Shown piece by piece: positions 3,748-49,237 of a stretch of DNA of 64,000 nt (position 1 is the first letter of the stretch; each line of letters begins with the position of its first letter). Source of the DNA: Escherichia coli (GTDB lineage Bacteria; Pseudomonadota; Gammaproteobacteria; Enterobacterales; Enterobacteriaceae); the NCBI RefSeq assembly GCF_002854065.1, contig NZ_CP024147.1. One strand, given 5' to 3'. Under the pieces are notes generated by a model, which was not told where the DNA came from, did not search any database, and saw only the letters and a program-made list of their open reading frames with translations. Position numbers and translations under genes: made by a program.

Positions 3748-4830
3748 TTAGAACTGGTAAACCATACCTACAGCAACGATATCATCGGTAGCAACGCCAG
3801 ATGCTTTCGTGAAATCGCTCTTATCAATCAGGTTGATTTTGTAGTCAACAAAAGTGGACATATTTTTGTTGAAGTAATAGGTTGCACCTACATCAACATA
3901 TTCAACCAGGTCCTGATCACCCCAAACACCCAAGTCTTTTCCTTTAGAATGCAGGTAAGCAACGGATGGACGCAGGCCGAAGTCGAACTGATATTGTGCA
4001 ACAGCTTCGAAGTTTTGTGCTTTGTTGGCAATATGGTTATTACCAAAAACAGTCATGTTCTGGGTTTCAGAATAGGTGGTGGCCAGATAGATGTTGTTCG
4101 CATCATATTTCAGACCAGCTGCCCATACTTCAGCATTTTGACCAGAAGCATTCAGACCGTTGTTACCGTAGATAACCTGATTATTAGTGCGATCAGATTT
4201 AGCATAGGTTGCACCCACGCCGAATCCTTCATACTCATAAGTAGTTGAGAAACCGAAACCATCGCCATTAGCTTCAGTTACTTCATTTCGGTCATTTTTG
4301 CCCTGATACTGAGCTGCAAAGTTCAGGCCATCAACCAGACCAAAGAAGTCGTTGTTACGATAAGTTGCAACACCTGTGGTGCGACCAGTCATGAACACAT
4401 CTGTTTGGGTCCAGGTATCGCCACCGAATTCTGGCAGAACGTCAGTCCACGCACCGATGTCGTATGCTACACCGTAGTTACGGCCGTAATCGATTGAGCC
4501 GTAGTCACCGAATTTCAGGCCAGCGAAGGCAAGACGGGTTTTATCTTTGGAGGAACCTTGAGATTCAGCGCGGTTGCCTTTGAATTCATATTCCCACTGA
4601 CCGAAACCAGTCAGTTGATCGTTGATTTGGGTTTCACCTTTGAAGCCAAGACGGGCATAAGTAGTATCACCATCATCTGCATCATTAGAGGAGAAGTAGT
4701 GCTTAGCATTAACTTTCCCGTACAGATCCAGCTTGTTACTGTCTTTATTATAAATTTCAGCTGCCTGAGCAGACATCGCCATCAGTACTGATGCAGCTAC
4801 AGCAGAAATTGCCACTGTTAATTTTTTCAT
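3748..4830 (-). CDS. nmpC: Outer-membrane general porin NmpC/OmpD-like, apparently intact (360 aa)
   Basis: Signal peptide [23 protein letters not shown], porin beta-barrel sequence ending in C-terminal F; uninterrupted here (K-12 copy carries IS5). Confidence 0.9.
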
Positions 4831-6116: not shown

Positions 6117-6571
6117 GCAGAGTAACCGCGATTATCTCCGCTCTGGTTATCTGCATCATCGTCTGCCTGTCATTGGCTGTTAATCATTACCGTGATAACG
6201 CAATCGCCTACAAAGAGCAGCGCGATAACAAGGCCAGTGAACTGGAGAAGGCGAACGCCACCATCGCTGACATGCGGAAGCGTCAACGTGATGTAGCAGA
6301 ACTCGACGCAAGATACACAAAGGAGCTTGCTGATGCTAACGCGACTATCGAAAGTCTCCGTGCTGATGTTTCTGCTGGGCGTAAGCGCCTGCAAGTCGCC
6401 GCCACCTGTGCAAAGTCAACGACCGGAGCCAGCGGCATGGGCGATGGAGAAAGCCCAGGACTTACAGCAGATGCTGAACTCAATTATTACCGTCTCCGAA
6501 GTGGAATCGACAAGATAACCGCGCAGGTTAACTACCTGCAGGAATACATCAGGACGCAATGCCTGAAATAA
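6113..6571 (+). CDS. rzpD: Spanin inner-membrane subunit Rz (i-spanin)
   Basis: N-terminal TM helix then coiled-coil-rich periplasmic domain; ATGA overlap with endolysin; diverges from K-12 RzpD. Confidence 0.85.
6327..6518 (+). CDS. rzoD: Spanin outer-membrane lipoprotein Rz1 (o-spanin), embedded in the +1 frame of Rz
   Basis: Lipobox LLGVSAC followed by proline-rich segment [13 protein letters not shown]; wholly inside Rz in another frame; exact start uncertain. Confidence 0.7.
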
Positions 6572-6602
6572 TTTTTTTGCAAATCACAAAGTCCATTTAA
6601 TG

Positions 6603-6628
6603 AGCCTCGCGATGCGGGGCTTTTTTTA
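6603..6628 (+). terminator. Rho-independent terminator after the lysis cassette
   Basis: Hairpin CCTCGC-gat-GCGGGG followed by CTTTTTTT. Confidence 0.5.
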
Positions 6629-6866
6629 CATCTGAATTTCACAGCGCATCTCACGCGCATATTACATCACCCGAGCCTTTCAGAAAGTTGAGCCTGAGAA
6701 CTGCCGTATATGGTGGCGACCATCTCGGGGCGGCTTTTCTGTGAGACAGGCTCACTTTCTAAAAGGTAAAGACGCTATGAACCAATTAGAAGAAAAGCTT
6801 CAAAGAATGATTTCCTTATACAAGGAAGATAACTGCCAAAAAGTTCCTTAAAACATCGCAGAGTTA

Positions 6867-7265
6867 ATGGAATTGGCAAGTGAATTTTCTGGCATGCTTA
6901 AGTCGTCAGGTGTTCGGTCAGCGTTCTTTGTTGAAATGCTGATGCACGGCGGACTTATGGCAACAATGAGACGTGTAATGGAAGACCAGAGAAAAGAACC
7001 TCCTCAGGTATACGTTTTGTCATCGAAGAAAACTGGGCTAACCAAAATTGGGTATTCATCCAACATTCCACAACGCATCAAATCGCTTGGCAACTCTGGA
7101 CCAGACTGCTTGAAGCTTGAGTGCCTGATCCCTGGTGGAAGAGAAACTGAAAACATGCTTCATCGCAAATTTGCCGCAAAGAGAAAGCACGGTGAATGGT
7201 TCGCCCTGTCCAAGGATGACATTGAGGGATTGAAATCTGTAGCGATTACTTCTGATGGCTATTAA
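6867..7265 (+). CDS. T5orf172 / GIY-YIG-like domain protein (132 aa), prophage accessory gene
   Basis: Motif block VYVLSSKKTGLTKIGYSSNIPQRIKSL...ENMLHRKFAAKRKHGEWFAL resembles the T5orf172 (MUG113) fold; N-terminal 45 aa unassigned. Confidence 0.5.
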   Translation: MELASEFSGMLKSSGVRSAFFVEMLMHGGLMATMRRVMEDQRKEPPQVYVLSSKKTGLTKIGYSSNIPQRIKSLGNSGPDCLKLECLIPGGRETENMLHRKFAAKRKHGEWFALSKDDIEGLKSVAITSDGY

Positions 7266-7943
7266 TGCTTGTTTAGAGCAATTTTCATAACAACTCTTCA
7301 TTACAAAGCCCATCTACTGGTGGGCTTGATAATGAAACCGTGATTTACATCCCCACAATCCGGGTATGTAAAAGATAGTTCAGGCGAGAACGGATTTAAC
7401 TAAATCTGTGCGCCACCAGTTAACGGCAGTACCACGAAACAACCCAAGCCAGTAAGTGGGGAAATAACACCGGCAGCCACTGAAAGATGAACCTCCTGCC
7501 TTATGGCAAAAAAGATTCTTTGTGGTGGCGGACTGATGGAAAGACATCCTAATTTCAGCCAAACATTGAAGGAGTTGTTATGTCAGCAGAAGGTTTCAAT
7601 AACCCATCAAAATTCCGGGATGAGTGGGATAGCAGCGTAAAGAGTAAGTGATGCCATCACAAAAGCCATTCCCTACAGAGTGGCTTTGATAATGGCTTAT
7701 ACCCTACACGGGATAACTTAACTGATATCCTTTTTAAAGGATAAAGGTATTCAAGCCTGACACATCATGCGCTGTATCGTCGCCGTATTCCCGTATTAAC
7801 AGAGACCGTAGCCCGACGGGGAACTCCTTCTGCGCGAGTGTGCGGGAATAATCAAAAACGATGCACACCGGGGTTACCGGGTACACATATTTCATCATGC
7901 CAGCGAGTCCGGTTCTGGCACGGAAGAAACCGGACGTTATGAT

Positions 7944-8354
7944 TTAGTGCGGAAATATTTGTGTAGTGTTCTGAATGTTCTCAGTAAAGAGTAATGAATT
8001 ATCAAAGGTATAGTAATACCTTTTGTTTTCGTGGATATTTGTAATCCATCTGAAAACCCCTGCTGTAGCAAGATTTTTCCTGTATTCGTAAAATGATAAC
8101 TCTCCTGATTTGAATCCTTTTAATGTGGTTTCTATAAGGCATTTATTTTTTGAAAATCTTACATTTACAACCTTACCCTGTCCTTTTATTAAAACCGTAT
8201 TATCGTTTTCAAGAACAAGATGAATATTCTCTGTGGCTAAATAGTAAATGTAATGTGAGACATTGTGACGTTTTAGTTCAGAATAAAACCAGTGATAGTT
8301 TAAATTATTTCGCACTTTATCGAATATTTGTTTAAAAATGGCAACCTGAGCCAT
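7944..8354 (-). CDS. Uncharacterised AT-rich prophage protein (136 aa from second Met; possibly YbcV-like)
   Basis: ORF in low-GC segment; length and position relative to the cos/nu1 region resemble DLP12 ybcV; no motif recognised. Confidence 0.45.
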
Positions 8355-8411
8355 TGTAGTACCTTCCATGTGATATGAAGGTACCTAGTCTGCACGATTA
8401 TCTAAATTGCT

Positions 8412-8645
8412 TCAATCTGGTCTGACCTGCTTTCTGAGCAATTCAGTAATGTCACTCTTTTCTTTGTTTGCTTCAGGCGAAACTCTTTTTTCTGAGCACA
8501 GTCTTCGGCGGCAGGCTTCAATGACCCAGGCTGAGAAATTCCCGGACCCTTTTTGATCAAGAGCGATGTTAATTTGTTCAATCATTTGGTTAGGAAAGCG
8601 GATGTTGCGGGTTGTTGTTCTGCGGGTTCTGTTCTTCGTTGACAT
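8412..8645 (-). CDS. Small ribbon-helix-helix-type DNA-binding protein (YlcI/DUF3950-like, 77 aa)
   Basis: Basic N-terminus then NIRFPNQMIEQINIALDQKGSGNFSAWVIEACRRRL, consistent with RHH/Arc-like fold; adjacent to cos as ylcI is in DLP12. Confidence 0.5.
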   Translation of the reverse strand: MSTKNRTRRTTTRNIRFPNQMIEQINIALDQKGSGNFSAWVIEACRRRLCSEKRVSPEANKEKSDITELLRKQVRPD

Positions 8646-8689
8646 GAGGTTGTCCCGTATTCAGTGTCGCTGATTTGTATTGTCTGAAG

Positions 8690-9000
8690 TTGTTTTTACG
8701 TTAAGTTGATGCAGATCAATTAATATGATACCTGCGTCATAATTGATTATTTGACGTGGTTTGATGGCGTAGATGCACGTTGTGACATGCAGATGATAAT
8801 TATTATCATTTTGCGGGTCCTTTCCGGCGATCCGACAGGTTACGGGGCGGCGACCTCGCGGGTTTTCGCTATTTATGAAAATTTTCCGGTTTAAGGCGTT
8901 TCCGTTCTTCTTCGTCGTAACTTAATGTTTTTATTTAAAATACCCCCTGAAAAGAAAGGAAACGACAGGTGCTGAAAACGAACTTTTGGGCCTTTGTCGT
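8690..9000 (+). other. Lambda-type cohesive-end site (cosQ - cosN - cosB); cosN 12-nt overhang sequence GGGCGGCGACCT at about 8845-8856
   Basis: Near-identity to the joined right and left ends of phage lambda as I recall them (…CCGACAGGTTACG|GGGCGGCGACCTCGCGGGTTTTCGCTATTTATGAAAATTTTCCGGTTTAAGGCGTTTCCGTTCTTCTTCGTC…) directly upstream of nu1. Confidence 0.8.
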
Positions 9001-9033
9001 TTCCTTTCTCTGTTTTTGGCCGTGGAATGAACA

Positions 9034-47000: not shown

Positions 47001-47888
47001 TTCTTCGCGCTTGGCGGTCATTCGCTACTGGCAATGAAACTGGCAGCGCAGTTAAGTCGACAGTTTGCTCGTCAGGTAACGCCGGGGCAGGTGATGGTCG
47101 CGTCAACTGTCGCCAAACTGGCAACGATTATTGATGGTGAAGAGGACAGCGCCCGGCGCATGGGATTCGAAACCATTCTGCCGTTGCGTGAAGGTAATGG
47201 CCCGACGCTGTTTTGTTTCCACCCGGCATCCGGTTTTGCCTGGCAGTTCAGCGTGCTCTCGCGTTATCTCGATCCACTATGGTCGATTATCGGCATTCAG
47301 TCGCCGCGCCCTCATGGCCCCATGCAGACAGCGACGAACCTGGATGAAGTCTGCGAAGCGCATCTGGCAACGTTACTTGAACAACAACCGCACGGCCCTT
47401 ATTACCTGCTGGGGTATTCCCTTGGCGGTACGCTGGCGCAGGGCATTGCGGCGCGACTACGTGCCCGTGGCGAACAGGTGGCATTTCTTGGCTTGCTGGA
47501 TACCTGGCCGCCAGAAACGCAAAACTGGCAGGAAAAAGAAGCTAATGGTCTGGACCCGGAAGTGCTGGCGGAGATTAACCGCGAGCGCGAGGCCTTCCTG
47601 GCGGCACAGCAGGGAAGTACTTCAACGGAGTTGTTTACCACCATTGAAGGCAACTACGCTGATGCTGTGCGCCTGCTGACGACTGCTCATAGCGTACCGT
47701 TTGACGGTAAAGCGACGTTGTTTGTTGCTGAACGCACGCTTCAGGGAGGTATGAGTCCTGAACGCGCCTGGTCGCCGTGGATTGCGGAGCTGGATATCTA
47801 TCGTCAGGATTGTGCGCATGTGGATATTATCTCTCCAGGGGCATTTGAAAAAATTGGGCCGATTATTCGCGCAACGCTAAACAGATAA
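44007..47888 (+). CDS. entF: Enterobactin NRPS EntF (C-A-PCP-TE, 1293 aa)
   Basis: 1293 aa; condensation HHxxxDG (HHLLVDG), adenylation core motifs (FTSGSTGRPKG, YRTGD), PCP GGHSL, thioesterase GYSLGG. Confidence 0.95.
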   Translation: MSQHLPLVAAQPGIWMAEKLSDLPSAWSVAHYVDLTGEVDAPLLARAVVAGLAQADTLRMRFTEDNGEVWQWVDDALIFELPEIIDLRTNIDPHGTAQALMQADLQQDLRVDSGKPLVFHQLIQVADNRWYWYQRYHHLLVDGFSFPAITRQIANIYCTWLRGEPTPASPFTPFADVVEEYRQYRESEAWQRDAAFWVEQRRQLPPPASLSPAPLPGRSASADILRLKLEFTDGEFRQLAMQFSGEQRTDLALALAALWLGRLCNRMDYAAGFIFMRRLGSAALTATGPVLNVLPLGIHIAAQETLPELATRLAAQLKKMRRHQRYDAEQIVRDSGRAAGDEPLFGPVLNIKVFDYQLDIPDVEAQTHTLATGPVNDLELALFPDEHGDLSIEILANKQRYAEPTLIQHAERLKMLIAQFAADPALLCGDVDIMLPGEYAQLAQINATQVEIPETTLSALVAEQAAKTPDAPALADARYQFSYREMREQVVALANLLREHGVKPGDSVAVALPRSVFLTLALHAIVEAGAAWLPLDTGYPDDRLKMMLEDARPSLLITTDDQLPRFADVPDLTNLCYNAPLTPQGSAPLQFSQPHHTAYIIFTSGSTGRPKGVMVGQTAIVNRLLWMQNHYPLTGEDVVAQKTPCSFDVSVWEFFWPFIAGAKLVMAEPEAHRDPLAMQQFFAEYGVTTTHFVPSMLAAFVASLTPETARQSCATLKQVFCSGEALPADLCREWQQLTSVPLHNLYGPTEAAVDVSWYPAFGEELAQVRGSSVPIGYPVWNTGLRILDAMMHPVPPGVAGDLYLTGIQLAQGYLGRPDLTASRFIADPFAPGERMYRTGDVARWLDNGAVEYLGRSDDQLKIRGQRIELGEIDRVMQALPDVEQAVTHACVINQAAATGGDARQLVGYLVSQSGLPLDTSALQAQLRETLPPHMVPVVLLQLPQLPLSANGKLDRKALPLPELKAQTPGRAPKAGSETIIAAAFASLLGCDVQDADADFFALGGHSLLAMKLAAQLSRQFARQVTPGQVMVASTVAKLATIIDGEEDSARRMGFETILPLREGNGPTLFCFHPASGFAWQFSVLSRYLDPLWSIIGIQSPRPHGPMQTATNLDEVCEAHLATLLEQQPHGPYYLLGYSLGGTLAQGIAARLRARGEQVAFLGLLDTWPPETQNWQEKEANGLDPEVLAEINREREAFLAAQQGSTSTELFTTIEGNYADAVRLLTTAHSVPFDGKATLFVAERTLQGGMSPERAWSPWIAELDIYRQDCAHVDIISPGAFEKIGPIIRATLNR

Positions 47889-47903
47889 ATTAACATTATC
47901 TAT

Positions 47904-47947
47904 AAACCCATAATTGCAGGAAATAATTATGGGTTTATCATTTATTT
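47904..47947 (+). terminator. Rho-independent terminator after entF
   Basis: 12-bp perfect stem AAACCCATAATT...AATTATGGGTTT followed by T-rich tract. Confidence 0.55.
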
Positions 47948-48103
47948 AATTTATAAGGTTGCTGGTTATTTTTCTTAAATAGAGTGAATGTTGCATTCAG
48001 TGGAATGAATTTACAAACTTCAGCTTCGGATAATTCTCACCAACTGGTAAAGTGAGCGCCGTGGAGATTTCCCCCTATTGGACTCATTTTCAGGTTATAC
48101 CCC

Positions 48104-49237
48104 ATGTCATCACTGAATATTAAACAGGGAAGTGACGCTCATTTTCCCGATTATCCTCTGGCGTCGCCCAGTAATAATGAAATTGATTTACTTAATCTAA
48201 TCTCAGTTTTATGGCGGGCCAAAAAAACGGTCATGGCGGTCGTTTTTGCGTTTGCCTGTGCAGTCTTGCTGATCTCTTTCATCCTGCCGCAAAAATGGAC
48301 CAGCGCGGCGGTTGTCACGCCTCCAGAACCTGTTCAGTGGCAAGAGTTGGAGAAAACATTCACTAAGCTTCGTGTGCTGGATCTGGATATCAAAATTGAT
48401 CGTACAGAAGCATTTAACCTGTTTATCAAGAAGTTTCAGTCGGTTAGCTTGCTGGAAGAGTACCTGCGTTCATCACCTTATGTGATGGACCAATTAAAAG
48501 AGGCGAAAATCGACGAACTGGATTTGCATCGCGCAATTGTCGCATTGAGCGAAAAAATGAAAGCGGTTGATGACAATGCCAGTAAGAAAAAAGATGAACC
48601 GTCACTGTATACCTCCTGGACGCTAAGTTTTACCGCGCCAACCAGTGAAGAGGCGCAGACCGTTTTGAGCGGGTATATCGATTATATCTCTGCGTTGGTG
48701 GTGAAAGAGTCGATAGAAAACGTCCGTAATAAACTGGAGATCAAAACCCAGTTTGAAAAAGAAAAACTGGCTCAGGACCGCATTAAAATGAAAAATCAAC
48801 TTGATGCAAACATTCAGCGCCTCAATTATTCACTCGACATTGCCAACGCGGCAGGAATTAAAAAGCCCGTTTACAGTAATGGTCAGGCCGTTAAAGATGA
48901 CCCCGATTTCTCTATTTCTCTCGGCGCAGACGGTATTGAACGCAAACTGGAAATTGAAAAAGCGGTCACTGACGTTGCGGAACTGAACGGTGAATTACGT
49001 AATCGTCAGTATCTTGTTGAGCAGTTAACAAAAGCAAATATCAACGATGTGAATTTTACGCCGTTTAAATATCAGTTAAGCCCGTCATTGCCAGTGAAAA
49101 AAGACGGTCCGGGTAAGGCGATTATTGTGATCCTTTCCGCGCTGATCGGCGGGATGGTGGCTTGTGGTAGCGTGTTATTGCGCTATGCGATGGCATCCAG
49201 AAAACAGGATGCCATGATGGCAGACCACTTAGTTTAA
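48104..49237 (+). CDS. fepE: Polysaccharide co-polymerase FepE (O-antigen very-long-chain length regulator, 377 aa)
   Basis: Wzz-type topology: N- and C-terminal TM segments with periplasmic coiled-coil. Confidence 0.9.
   Translation: MSSLNIKQGSDAHFPDYPLASPSNNEIDLLNLISVLWRAKKTVMAVVFAFACAVLLISFILPQKWTSAAVVTPPEPVQWQELEKTFTKLRVLDLDIKIDRTEAFNLFIKKFQSVSLLEEYLRSSPYVMDQLKEAKIDELDLHRAIVALSEKMKAVDDNASKKKDEPSLYTSWTLSFTAPTSEEAQTVLSGYIDYISALVVKESIENVRNKLEIKTQFEKEKLAQDRIKMKNQLDANIQRLNYSLDIANAAGIKKPVYSNGQAVKDDPDFSISLGADGIERKLEIEKAVTDVAELNGELRNRQYLVEQLTKANINDVNFTPFKYQLSPSLPVKKDGPGKAIIVILSALIGGMVACGSVLLRYAMASRKQDAMMADHLV

Follow-up and report, generated by a model that had tools for sequence, protein, structure and literature searches.

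Accessory region at the right end of a DLP12-type prophage

We examined a 64,000-nt stretch of Escherichia coli DNA (contig NZ_CP024147.1; the window) and, within it, the segment between the lysis gene Rz and the lambda-type cohesive end (cos), which carries three small genes and, ahead of the first, a structured mRNA leader. An earlier note, made from the letters of the window, had described this segment as an accessory-gene slot between Rz/Rz1 and cos holding open reading frames (ORFs) of 132, 136 and 77 amino acids (aa). Our ORF calls found all three where that note had placed them, RefSeq gives them the same positions in strain 100416, and the slot is bordered as described, by Rz on the left (stop codon 6569-6571, the left limit of the block) and by a lambda-type cos at 8845-8856 on the right.

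Positions 6400-9100 of the window are 100% identical to strain 100416 (NZ_CM128593.1) and 99.6-99.7% identical to about 70 other complete genomes, and we assign the locus to an argU-linked, defective prophage of the DLP12 type in E. coli. The gene order in strain 100416 is intD, rusA, quuD, an intact nmpC-type porin gene, essD, rrrD and the gene for the lysis (Rz) protein. After Rz come genes annotated as "GIY-YIG nuclease family protein", "DUF1398 domain-containing protein" and "YlcI/YnfO family protein", and beyond the last of these lie a truncated small terminase gene and then tail-gene fragments. Window 8483-8844 aligns to lambda 48141-48502 at 94.5% identity, and because this alignment stops exactly at the right end of lambda (base 48502 corresponds to 8844), we place the cohesive end immediately after it. 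The main features of the region are:

6602-6626, plus strand: intrinsic terminator, a GC-rich hairpin with a T-run, just 3′ of Rz (terminator scan); left edge of the cassette slot.
6670-6786, plus strand: conserved structured mRNA leader, an irregular hairpin of about 105 nt (RNAalifold, covariance model, covariation).
6777-7265, plus strand: 162-codon cassette gene of the T5orf172/MUG113 type (GIY-YIG superfamily), here broken by a premature stop; orthologue of HK106 gp64 (alignment with HK106 and Chlobot).
6849-6851, plus strand: TAA nonsense codon at codon 25 of the cassette gene; GAA (Glu) in intact alleles (HK106/Chlobot alignment).
6867-7265, plus strand: residual 132-aa ORF, RefSeq WP_000417740.1 (ORF call; same RefSeq coordinates in strain 100416).
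7944-8354, minus strand: DUF1398 gene, 136 aa; orthologue of lambdap78 and of DLP12 ybcV and Qin ydfO (Pfam; same RefSeq coordinates in strain 100416).
8412-8645, minus strand: DUF3950/YlcI-YnfO gene, 77 aa (Pfam, NCBIfam; same RefSeq coordinates in strain 100416).
8845-8856, plus strand: lambda-type cohesive end with cosN overhang GGGCGGCGACCT (lambda alignment ending at 8844); right limit of the accessory region.

A structured leader predicted to occlude the Shine-Dalgarno sequence

The 180 nt that run from the Rz terminator to the ATG at 6777 are 88-90% identical to the region upstream of hkbK (KilA-N) in HK620 and upstream of rha in phiKp_30, and more diverged versions stand ahead of KilA-N genes in HK544 and BIS08P22 and ahead of the Rha gene in POCJ13. 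RNAalifold on seven of these sequences returned one long irregular hairpin with compensatory changes in 14 of its 38 predicted pairs, and the minimum free energy of the window leader is -44.3 kcal/mol (z = -3.5). In basal helix 1 of this fold, GCCUUU at 6675-6680 pairs with the Shine-Dalgarno region, AAAGGU at 6762-6767, which precedes ATG 6777 by 10 nt.

We built a covariance model of the leader (R1; 116 positions, 29 pairs), which scores the window copy at 122.6 bits. It identified 69 copies in loci anchored on the downstream linker (see below) and 107 more in loci gathered independently with a degenerate pattern. For the first set, comprising 19 distinct sequences, 94.3% of cells were paired, 13 of the 29 pairs were compensatory, and the covariation score was 0.322 against 0.079 for the best slid control; for the second set, with 59 distinct sequences, the corresponding values were 92.8%, 19 of 29, 0.329 and 0.075, and in either set 0 of 500 shuffles reached the score. 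Helices 1-4 were paired at 93-99.6% in the second set, with the apical helix 5 weak at 69%, and the Shine-Dalgarno columns paired in all lineages (96.7%). RNAalifold run on the second alignment without the model structure again recovered helices 1-4. Cells with G.U outnumber cells with A.C by 149 to 2 in the sense-strand leader, so the fold belongs to the sense strand, as expected for an mRNA.

A search of the 4227 families of Rfam 15 gave no match to the leader, even at E values up to 10. The best Rfam matches anywhere in 6560-7960 fell far below threshold (mir-458, 22 bits against 59; Proteo-phage-1, 19.8 against 42; rimP, 17.9 against 47), and we attribute the Proteo-phage-1 match, which covers 36 nt of an 82-position model, to chance. 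The prophage small RNAs AgvB, AsxR and STnc100, all Rfam families, did not match either, and the Pas small RNAs lie near Q and the holin gene, not here. Our literature search on the slot or the leader found nothing relevant as a prior description. We interpret the leader as an mRNA structure that sequesters the Shine-Dalgarno sequence, new but of a familiar class, and consider this assignment well supported by the covariation.

The leader is widespread. Its type-I form, the sequence variant found in the window, occurs in 903 of 5426 complete E. coli genomes (about 1 in 6) and in 151 phage records from Escherichia, Salmonella, Klebsiella, Enterobacter, Hafnia, Citrobacter and Pantoea. Some annotations lie on top of it: the POCJ13 leader (locus L012, 856-990) is annotated as a 45-aa hypothetical protein (gp44), and in several RefSeq genomes the coding sequence (CDS) given for Rha or KilA-N overlaps the leader, probably through the choice of an upstream start codon. 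These overlapping ORF and CDS annotations are likely artefacts.

HK106 and HK544 have a homologue of the 6602-6626 site, annotated there as a rho-independent terminator. Between the terminator and the leader lies a short hairpin, GCGC-ATCTCAC-GCGC at 6640-6665, with counterparts in HK544 (ATGCGT-ACCGCA-ACGCAT) and POCJ13 in which the stem is kept and the sequence differs, the alignment being judged by eye. A promoter scan found no sigma-70 promoter for the cassette; a candidate spotted by eye, TTCACA-N16-TATTAC at about 6636-6663, is not conserved in HK106 and was rejected.

Interchangeable cassettes behind the leader

To describe what follows the leader, we classed the 176 leader hits of the two sets by the ORF that begins at the conserved ATGAA, some loci being common to both sets:

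KilA-N cassette: 70 of 176 hits.
Rha cassette: 56 of 176 hits.
T5orf172 cassette: 27 of 176 hits (24 intact, 3 truncated).
P22-type antirepressor (Ant): 10 of 176 hits (P22_AR_N, 1.3e-44).
HNH-type endonuclease: about 7 of 176 hits (one tested, with HNH_3 at 2.1e-18 and a weak AP2 match).
242-aa protein: 3 of 176 hits, with no significant Pfam match.

One and the same leader variant serves different cassettes, and similarity stops exactly at ATGAA. The junctions of the slot are correspondingly sharp, lying at ATGAA on the left and about 25-40 nt past the stop codon on the right. Leader-cassette units also occur in tandem or at other places in the late operon (loci L116, L186, L198, L174, L170, L010 and L154): Shiga toxin (Stx) phages have a leader-ant unit between the endolysin and Rz genes in addition to leader-rha after Rz, in one contig a leader-HNH/AP2 unit lies ahead of the holin gene, and one has three successive leader-cassette units between Rz and the small terminase gene. 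The leader thus travels with its cassettes and is not tied to one site.

We also gathered 88 loci by anchoring on block B (7409-7553), the most conserved part of the linker that follows the cassette. In these loci the left slot after Rz was occupied by GIY-YIG, by KilA-N plus hkbL or by Rha, or was empty, and the right module was DUF1398-DUF3950-Nu1, DUF2560-(hkbN)-TerS or an HK97-type HNH gene. All three right-hand modules were found with GIY-YIG and also with KilA-N; in this sample Rha accompanied DUF2560-TerS or HNH and in no locus DUF1398-DUF3950-Nu1. Phage HK106 has the GIY-YIG gene, with DUF1398 and DUF3950 both absent. From these combinations we conclude that the left slot and the right module assort independently and that the three genes of the window do not form one system, which bears out the earlier note's caution that nothing shows them acting together.

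The window cassette is a nonsense-interrupted T5orf172 gene

The reading of the 132-aa ORF as T5orf172/GIY-YIG-like is confirmed by Pfam, with matches to MUG113 (4.6e-14) and T5orf172 (9.6e-10) over ORF residues 48-121, and the T5orf172 domain is common to 11,204 relatives at E<=0.001. This ORF is the larger part of an interrupted gene. It matches positions 40-171 of phrog_4284 (profile length 171), while a 36-aa ORF in the same frame, at 6741-6851, matches positions 2-33. In HK106 and Chlobot the intact gene encodes an uninterrupted 162-aa protein that is 98.8-99.4% identical to the window reading frame (tblastn). Among related loci on viral contigs, 24 have an intact 162-aa ORF and 3 have a 24-aa stub.

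We found the cassette gene in 81 of the 5426 complete E. coli genomes and the exact TAA-bearing 81-mer in 2 of these 81. The other 79 carriers differ from the 81-mer by at least one base; one of them, strain BE2-5, was examined directly and has an intact, annotated CDS of 489 nt. The second TAA strain, GDSC2227PM, also lacks 7032-7434 (a 403-bp deletion). The gene in the window is most probably a young, decaying pseudogene in this lineage, and the truncated gene would have lost its function; at best, re-initiation at ATG 6867, 15 nt past the stop, could give a truncated 132-aa product. RefSeq/PGAP names the remnant an ordinary "GIY-YIG nuclease family protein" and not a pseudogene, since an uninterrupted ORF starts at the internal ATG.

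Across 50 aligned relatives, Y79, K90, G92, R100, E125, W141 and F142 (full-length numbering) are invariant and I91, H129, G139 and E140 are at least 90% conserved, and the window has all of them; the motif residues retained include the Tyr of "GIY", K-I-G of the second motif, the Arg, Glu and His, and GEWF. AlphaFold2 models the intact protein with high confidence (predicted local distance difference test score, pLDDT, 91.2) as helices 3-20, 23-43 and 49-71 followed by an alpha/beta domain at 77-159. The whole T5orf172 domain is kept in the 132-aa ORF, but of the N-terminal bundle of three helices the first helix and half of the second are missing. A phmmer search of the protein against PDB sequences gave no match. 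With its invariant residues of the catalytic type, the intact protein is a putative nuclease; the one published instance of nuclease activity that depends on the catalytic Glu is cited in PMC10448857.

A conserved non-coding linker joins the cassette to the packaging module

The 678 bp between the 132-aa ORF and the DUF1398 gene are non-coding, 90-97% conserved in 595 phage records and mostly unannotated, and this DNA is common to lambda-like, P22-like and Stx phages and a Klebsiella phage. We divide it as follows:

7289-7347, plus strand: block A, with a hairpin at 7306-7327 (blastn against HK620, Sf6, HK544, phiKp_30 and BIS08P22; fold); right edge of the cassette slot.
7409-7553, plus strand: block B, 96-97% identical across lambda-like, P22-like and Stx phages (phage comparison); the joint between lysis/cassette and packaging.
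7549-7677, plus strand: 129-bp insert that varies between strains and lies at a hot-spot of moron insertion; HK106 and Chlobot lack it, and 125 complete E. coli genomes have it.
7656-7745, plus strand: block C, a hairpin plus a GATAATGG motif (blastn against related phages).

Block A is where homology to the KilA-N and Rha phages resumes. Reading the sequence variants of block B frame by frame, we found no conserved reading frame in it; of the two ORFs that it does contain, of 60 aa on the minus strand and 21 aa on the plus strand, natural variants bring a stop codon or mostly non-synonymous changes. The 129-bp insert holds a 23-codon ORF at 7580-7651 (MSAEGFNNPSKFRDEWDSSVKSK) with a strong AAGGAG Shine-Dalgarno sequence and a hairpin after it, and could be a micro-moron or a remnant; other phages have Sf6 gene 66 or a Gp49-family gene at the same insertion point. 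The hairpin of block C shows compensatory differences in the alignment of the window with the HK106/Chlobot version. A 54-aa ORF at 7734-7898 (minus strand), annotated in Chlobot, is not a gene: lambda and K-12 have an in-frame stop and no start there, POCJ13 has indels, and there is no PHROG match.

Whether the linker is itself a structured RNA was addressed by folding. Block B alone gives no support for this (z = -0.3 and -0.8), and its variation is too low for covariation; the whole 481-nt gap, on either strand, forms a much stronger structure than its shuffles do (z = -5.3 and -4.2), so that the strand is not assignable. Blocks A-C may serve as a linker for recombination or else form a structured stretch within the late transcript.

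The DUF1398 and DUF3950 genes are carried by lambda itself

The DUF1398 gene coincides with a G+C trough of 31-35%, in agreement with the earlier description of the 136-aa ORF as AT-rich. The annotated ATG gives 136 aa, and the mechanical ORF extends to 8369. Its protein matches PF07166 over positions 1-119 of 119 (2.7e-43), phrog_413 (2.5e-87) and the solved structure of Qin YdfO (PDB 2HH8; E 7.4e-68). It is 77% identical to the product of lambda 47048-47452 (lambdap78), with 83% nucleotide identity to K-12 and lambda. DUF1398 occurs in 43 phage records, and in the 88-locus sample we saw it only next to a lambda-type cos/Nu1 packaging module. The lambda reference (NC_001416) and PHROGs (phrog_413) label the lambdap78 family "head protein", a label for which we found no support.

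The earlier note had also said that none of the three genes has an assigned function. This is true, though the literature bears on two relatives of the DUF1398 gene: knock-down of lambdap78 by CRISPR interference left a plating efficiency of 1.3-1.9, making the gene dispensable for plaque formation (PMC10695390), and ybcV is activated by PdhR, its mRNA falling 10-fold in a K-12 pdhR mutant and a PdhR site having been mapped between ybcV and ybcW by systematic evolution of ligands by exponential enrichment (SELEX; PMC7660256). An ionic-liquid stress strongly induces the Qin relative ydfO, and cells over-expressing it are reported to tolerate oxidative stress better (PMC4077768). In the window we find, ahead of the gene:

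8418-8427, no strand assigned: core of a PdhR-type box, TGGTCTGACC, about 65 bp upstream of the DUF1398 start and within the 3′ end of the DUF3950 ORF.

The surrounding 16-mer, CAATCTGGTCTGACCT, matches the published PdhR box sequence and is identical in the window, K-12 and lambda; the K-12 copy would be the published SELEX site, to judge from sequence identity and an unverified coordinate conversion. Because the DUF1398 gene is preceded by a box identical to the K-12 ybcV/ybcW PdhR-site sequence, it is probably a prophage gene under host metabolic control and not one with a lytic or defence function. The identical box in lambda suggests that a lambda gene may be under host pyruvate-sensing control.

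The protein of the neighbouring gene matches DUF3950 (PF13132, 9.8e-21) and the NCBIfam model YlcI_YnfO_N (NF041551; 35.7 bits against a cut-off of 30). Among 22 relatives, its first 50 residues, with a basic N-terminus, are nearly invariant and its C-terminus is variable; the C-terminus differs from that of K-12 (77 aa here against 64 aa). Lambda has an unannotated ORF of the same family (NC_001416, 48139-48303, minus strand) that is 94.5% identical over the first 55 residues. DUF3950 is found in 152 phage records, many of them Stx phages.

The earlier note had called this protein basic and of the ribbon-helix-helix type. It is basic and its predicted topology is compatible; the family assignment found no significant profile or structure match. 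AlphaFold2 predicts an extended basic segment (1-18) and helices at 19-32 and 34-53, with a mean pLDDT of only 67.6; hhalign against P22 Arc gives the expected register at a non-significant probability of 1.3%; and the best Foldseek matches are ribbon-helix-helix-type domains (TCP, ParD2, ArtA and PrpA) at template-modelling (TM) scores of 0.4-0.57 and E>2. On the modelled topology, the protein is probably a small ribbon-helix-helix-type DNA binder.

K-12 carries this pair of families twice, as ybcV and ylcI in DLP12 and as ydfO and ynfO in Qin. In K-12 and lambda the oppositely oriented ybcW/lambdap79 sits between the DUF1398 and DUF3950 genes; compared with them, the window lacks ybcW/lambdap79, lambda 47532-48140 (609 bp) being swapped for 50 bp, a replacement that also alters the DUF3950 C-terminus. 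Also absent is borD, in whose place stands the cassette slot. From these comparisons we take DUF1398 and DUF3950 not to be an obligate pair.

Two further observations concern the surrounding prophage. The porin gene at 3748-4830 (minus strand), of nmpC type and annotated as ompC in strain 100416, is intact at 360 aa, the K-12 copy being split by IS5. The gene ybcY at 10874-11542 (minus strand), for a class I S-adenosylmethionine-dependent methyltransferase, is an intact 222-aa ORF here and a pseudogene in K-12.

Two unrelated pieces and the alternatives

We put at roughly 75% the probability that the region consists of two unrelated, independently assorting pieces of the lambdoid right end joined by a conserved non-coding linker. 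The first piece (about 6572-7347) comprises the Rz terminator, the leader of about 105 nt that occludes the Shine-Dalgarno sequence and one cassette ORF starting at ATGAA; the second (7944-8645, minus strand) is lambda's own DUF3950 and DUF1398 pair. In lambda, Q-modified polymerase reads through the Rz terminator; the late operon of P22-like phages continues downstream into the head genes. The cassette would then be transcribed within the Q-antiterminated late transcript, and the leader would keep translation of DNA-targeting, potentially toxic cassette proteins low or conditional through the occluded ribosome-binding site. KilA kills the host, and a cargo of toxic or conflict proteins (KilA, Rha, antirepressors and nucleases) fits translation that is held back by the leader. 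The ribosome-binding site could plausibly be freed by RNase III cutting the long stem. Our best guess for the intact T5orf172 protein is a DNA endonuclease serving phage-phage conflict or homing. The Rha protein of P22 and phi80, also encoded in the late operon, blocks lytic growth unless restrained by integration host factor (IHF) (summarised in PMC4936722).

Several points weigh against this interpretation or parts of it. The covariation of the leader rests on about 5-6 sequence lineages, and the alignments were fitted to the model. The regulatory role of the leader is read from its structure, and hairpins of this long, irregular kind may just as well serve RNase III processing or the binding of a protein. 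A fold search with the model of the GIY-YIG protein returned no nuclease match, the helical bundle dominating the matches, and neither hhalign, AlphaFold2 nor Foldseek gives statistical support to the ribbon-helix-helix assignment of DUF3950. Lastly, RefSeq annotates the 132-aa ORF as an intact protein and the whole catalytic domain is retained, so the ORF may have residual activity.

The alternative that survives best is that the intact T5orf172 cassette is a free-standing homing endonuclease that, in co-infecting lambdoid phages, cuts slot alleles with no cassette or with a different one and is copied in by repair from the conserved flanks. Such a mechanism would explain both the presence/absence polymorphism and the unusually good conservation of the flanks, which are 90-97% identical among otherwise mosaic phages; the slot is polymorphic at a fixed site (GIY-YIG, KilA-N, Rha or none), between the same leader and block A/B, with sharp junctions. 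T5orf172 and HNH-AP2 are, moreover, the two homing-endonuclease families of ICP1-like phages, where they lie at exchange boundaries and often beside terminase genes (PMC10448857), and genes of both families occupy the lambdoid slot. However, the commonest occupants, KilA-N, Rha and Ant, are not nucleases, and homing is hence no general explanation of the slot. Nor does the T5orf172 protein show a recognisable domain for sequence-specific DNA binding: it has only a helical bundle of 70 residues, whereas 87% of surveyed T5orf172 homing endonucleases bear zinc-finger CapR-like domains (PMC10448857). We regard homing as a tentative possibility; it concerns the role of the intact gene and is compatible with the two-piece explanation.

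A second alternative concerns the leader hairpin, which might be a site of cassette exchange, acting as single-stranded DNA in the manner of an integron attC site, or merely an RNase III site that separates the cassette from the lysis mRNA. In favour of these readings, structure is better conserved than sequence, every cassette has its own leader copy, with tandem arrays of up to three units, and junctions are exact at the 3′ side of the hairpin. The stem, with its more than 25 irregular base pairs, is also as large as known RNase III sites such as those of lambda and T7. Against exchange, no integrase or other dedicated recombinase is linked to the leader units, and homologous recombination in the conserved flanks suffices. 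The excess of sense-strand G.U over A.C described above favours an RNA of the coding strand, and the Shine-Dalgarno sequence always lies within helix 1, which is not required of a recombination site. We consider this alternative unlikely. A broader proposal fares no better in our estimate: that leader and cassette form a portable expression unit whose RNA or DNA hairpin gates translation of interchangeable conflict genes (antirepressors, KilA-N, Rha, T5orf172 and HNH-AP2 nucleases) on a specific late-infection signal and also marks the exchange point, integron-like, the window nuclease being a decayed cassette.

The earlier note had singled out the block as the most plausible place in the window for a defence or superinfection-exclusion function, and we considered whether the block, or its first ORF alone, is an anti-phage determinant. 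The slot does hold conflict-type proteins (antirepressor, KilA), and lysogenic-conversion genes, bor for example, are known from it; prophages express DUF1398; and the T5orf172 domain weakly matches the PADLOC candidate PDC-S57 (E 4.3e-6). That match is limited to the shared domain (profile positions 3-84 of 212), and among the three block proteins PADLOC-DB v2 found no complete defence system, a Csx23 match of the 136-aa protein (E 0.022) being noise and the 77-aa protein giving none. A late-operon gene behind a terminator, with its ribosome-binding site occluded, would be atypical for defence expressed in a lysogen; the gene carries a nonsense mutation here and, in the sister strain, a deletion as well; the three assort independently of one another; and lambda has the second and third ORFs with no exclusion phenotype attributed to either. 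We find a defence function very improbable, and the claim of the earlier note is not supported. That note had named, as what would refute it, a block of ordinary DLP12 content with no phenotype and a first gene that is not T5orf172-like; the second and third ORFs are indeed the ybcV/ylcI content of DLP12 and lambda, and the first ORF remains T5orf172-like.

Least credible of all is a toxin-antitoxin or abortive-infection pair with DUF3950 as upstream ribbon-helix-helix antitoxin and DUF1398 as downstream toxin: the two genes share a strand, a 57-nt gap and the order of type II operons, the non-significant structural neighbours of DUF3950 include the antitoxins ParD and PrpA, and there is a weak match to phrog_497 ("HicB-like"), but ybcW/lambdap79 separates the genes in K-12 and lambda, DUF3950 is in 152 phage records against 43 for DUF1398, a separate, PdhR-dependent control seems to act on DUF1398, knocking down lambdap78 has no phenotype, and no PADLOC or toxin-antitoxin model matches.

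Taken as a whole, the block reads as ordinary, already annotated lambda-family prophage DNA, an accessory slot plus two genes that lambda itself carries. The three-gene block is of little consequence, being already annotated, common to lambda and HK106, with one pseudogene and no pointer to defence. The leader is the part worth following. It fronts accessory genes of the KilA-N, Rha, Bro and T5orf172 types that have been poorly understood in lambdoid phages for decades, and if it controls translation it offers a single experimental handle on the timing of the cassette gene products. It also corrects annotations that place small ORFs or extended start codons over it, and the data on independent assortment map the recombination joints between the lysis and packaging modules.

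Comparison with known systems

The closest relatives of the window gene are HK106 gp64 (YP_007151734.1) and its Chlobot orthologue, which share with it the position after the Rz terminator, the leader and the downstream non-coding block; Chlobot, like the window, also has DUF1398 and DUF3950 genes and a lambda-type small terminase. Unlike these, the window copy has TAA for GAA at codon 25 and lies in a DLP12-type prophage that is defective, its packaging and tail genes being truncated. On the right-hand side, lambdap78 with the 48139-48303 ORF in lambda, ybcV/ylcI in K-12 and ydfO/ynfO in Qin belong to the same families and have the same orientation and place beside cos/Nu1 as in the window, where, unlike in lambda and K-12, the DUF1398 and DUF3950 genes are adjacent.

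The T5orf172 and IPA-HNH genes of ICP1-like phages (PMC10448857, Barth et al. 2023) are of the same nuclease families as those of the slot, with exchange boundaries near the terminase and presence/absence polymorphism; the lambdoid T5orf172 proteins differ in being short, without zinc-finger DNA-binding repeats, and in sharing their slot with non-nuclease cassettes. The late-operon accessory genes rha (orf201) of P22, hkbK (KilA-N) of HK620 and ant of Stx phages have the same structured leader ahead of them, but they encode different protein families, and their mechanism is not transferable to the nuclease; control of rha by IHF, moreover, was reportedly described at the level of DNA or transcription and not through this leader RNA (Henthorn and Friedman 1995). 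The leader itself resembles known Shine-Dalgarno-sequestering leaders, among them RNA thermometers, translational operators and the RNase III-activated leader of lambda N, in that a basal helix holds the Shine-Dalgarno sequence and the start codon stands next to it. It is unusual among them as a portable unit serving many unrelated ORFs.

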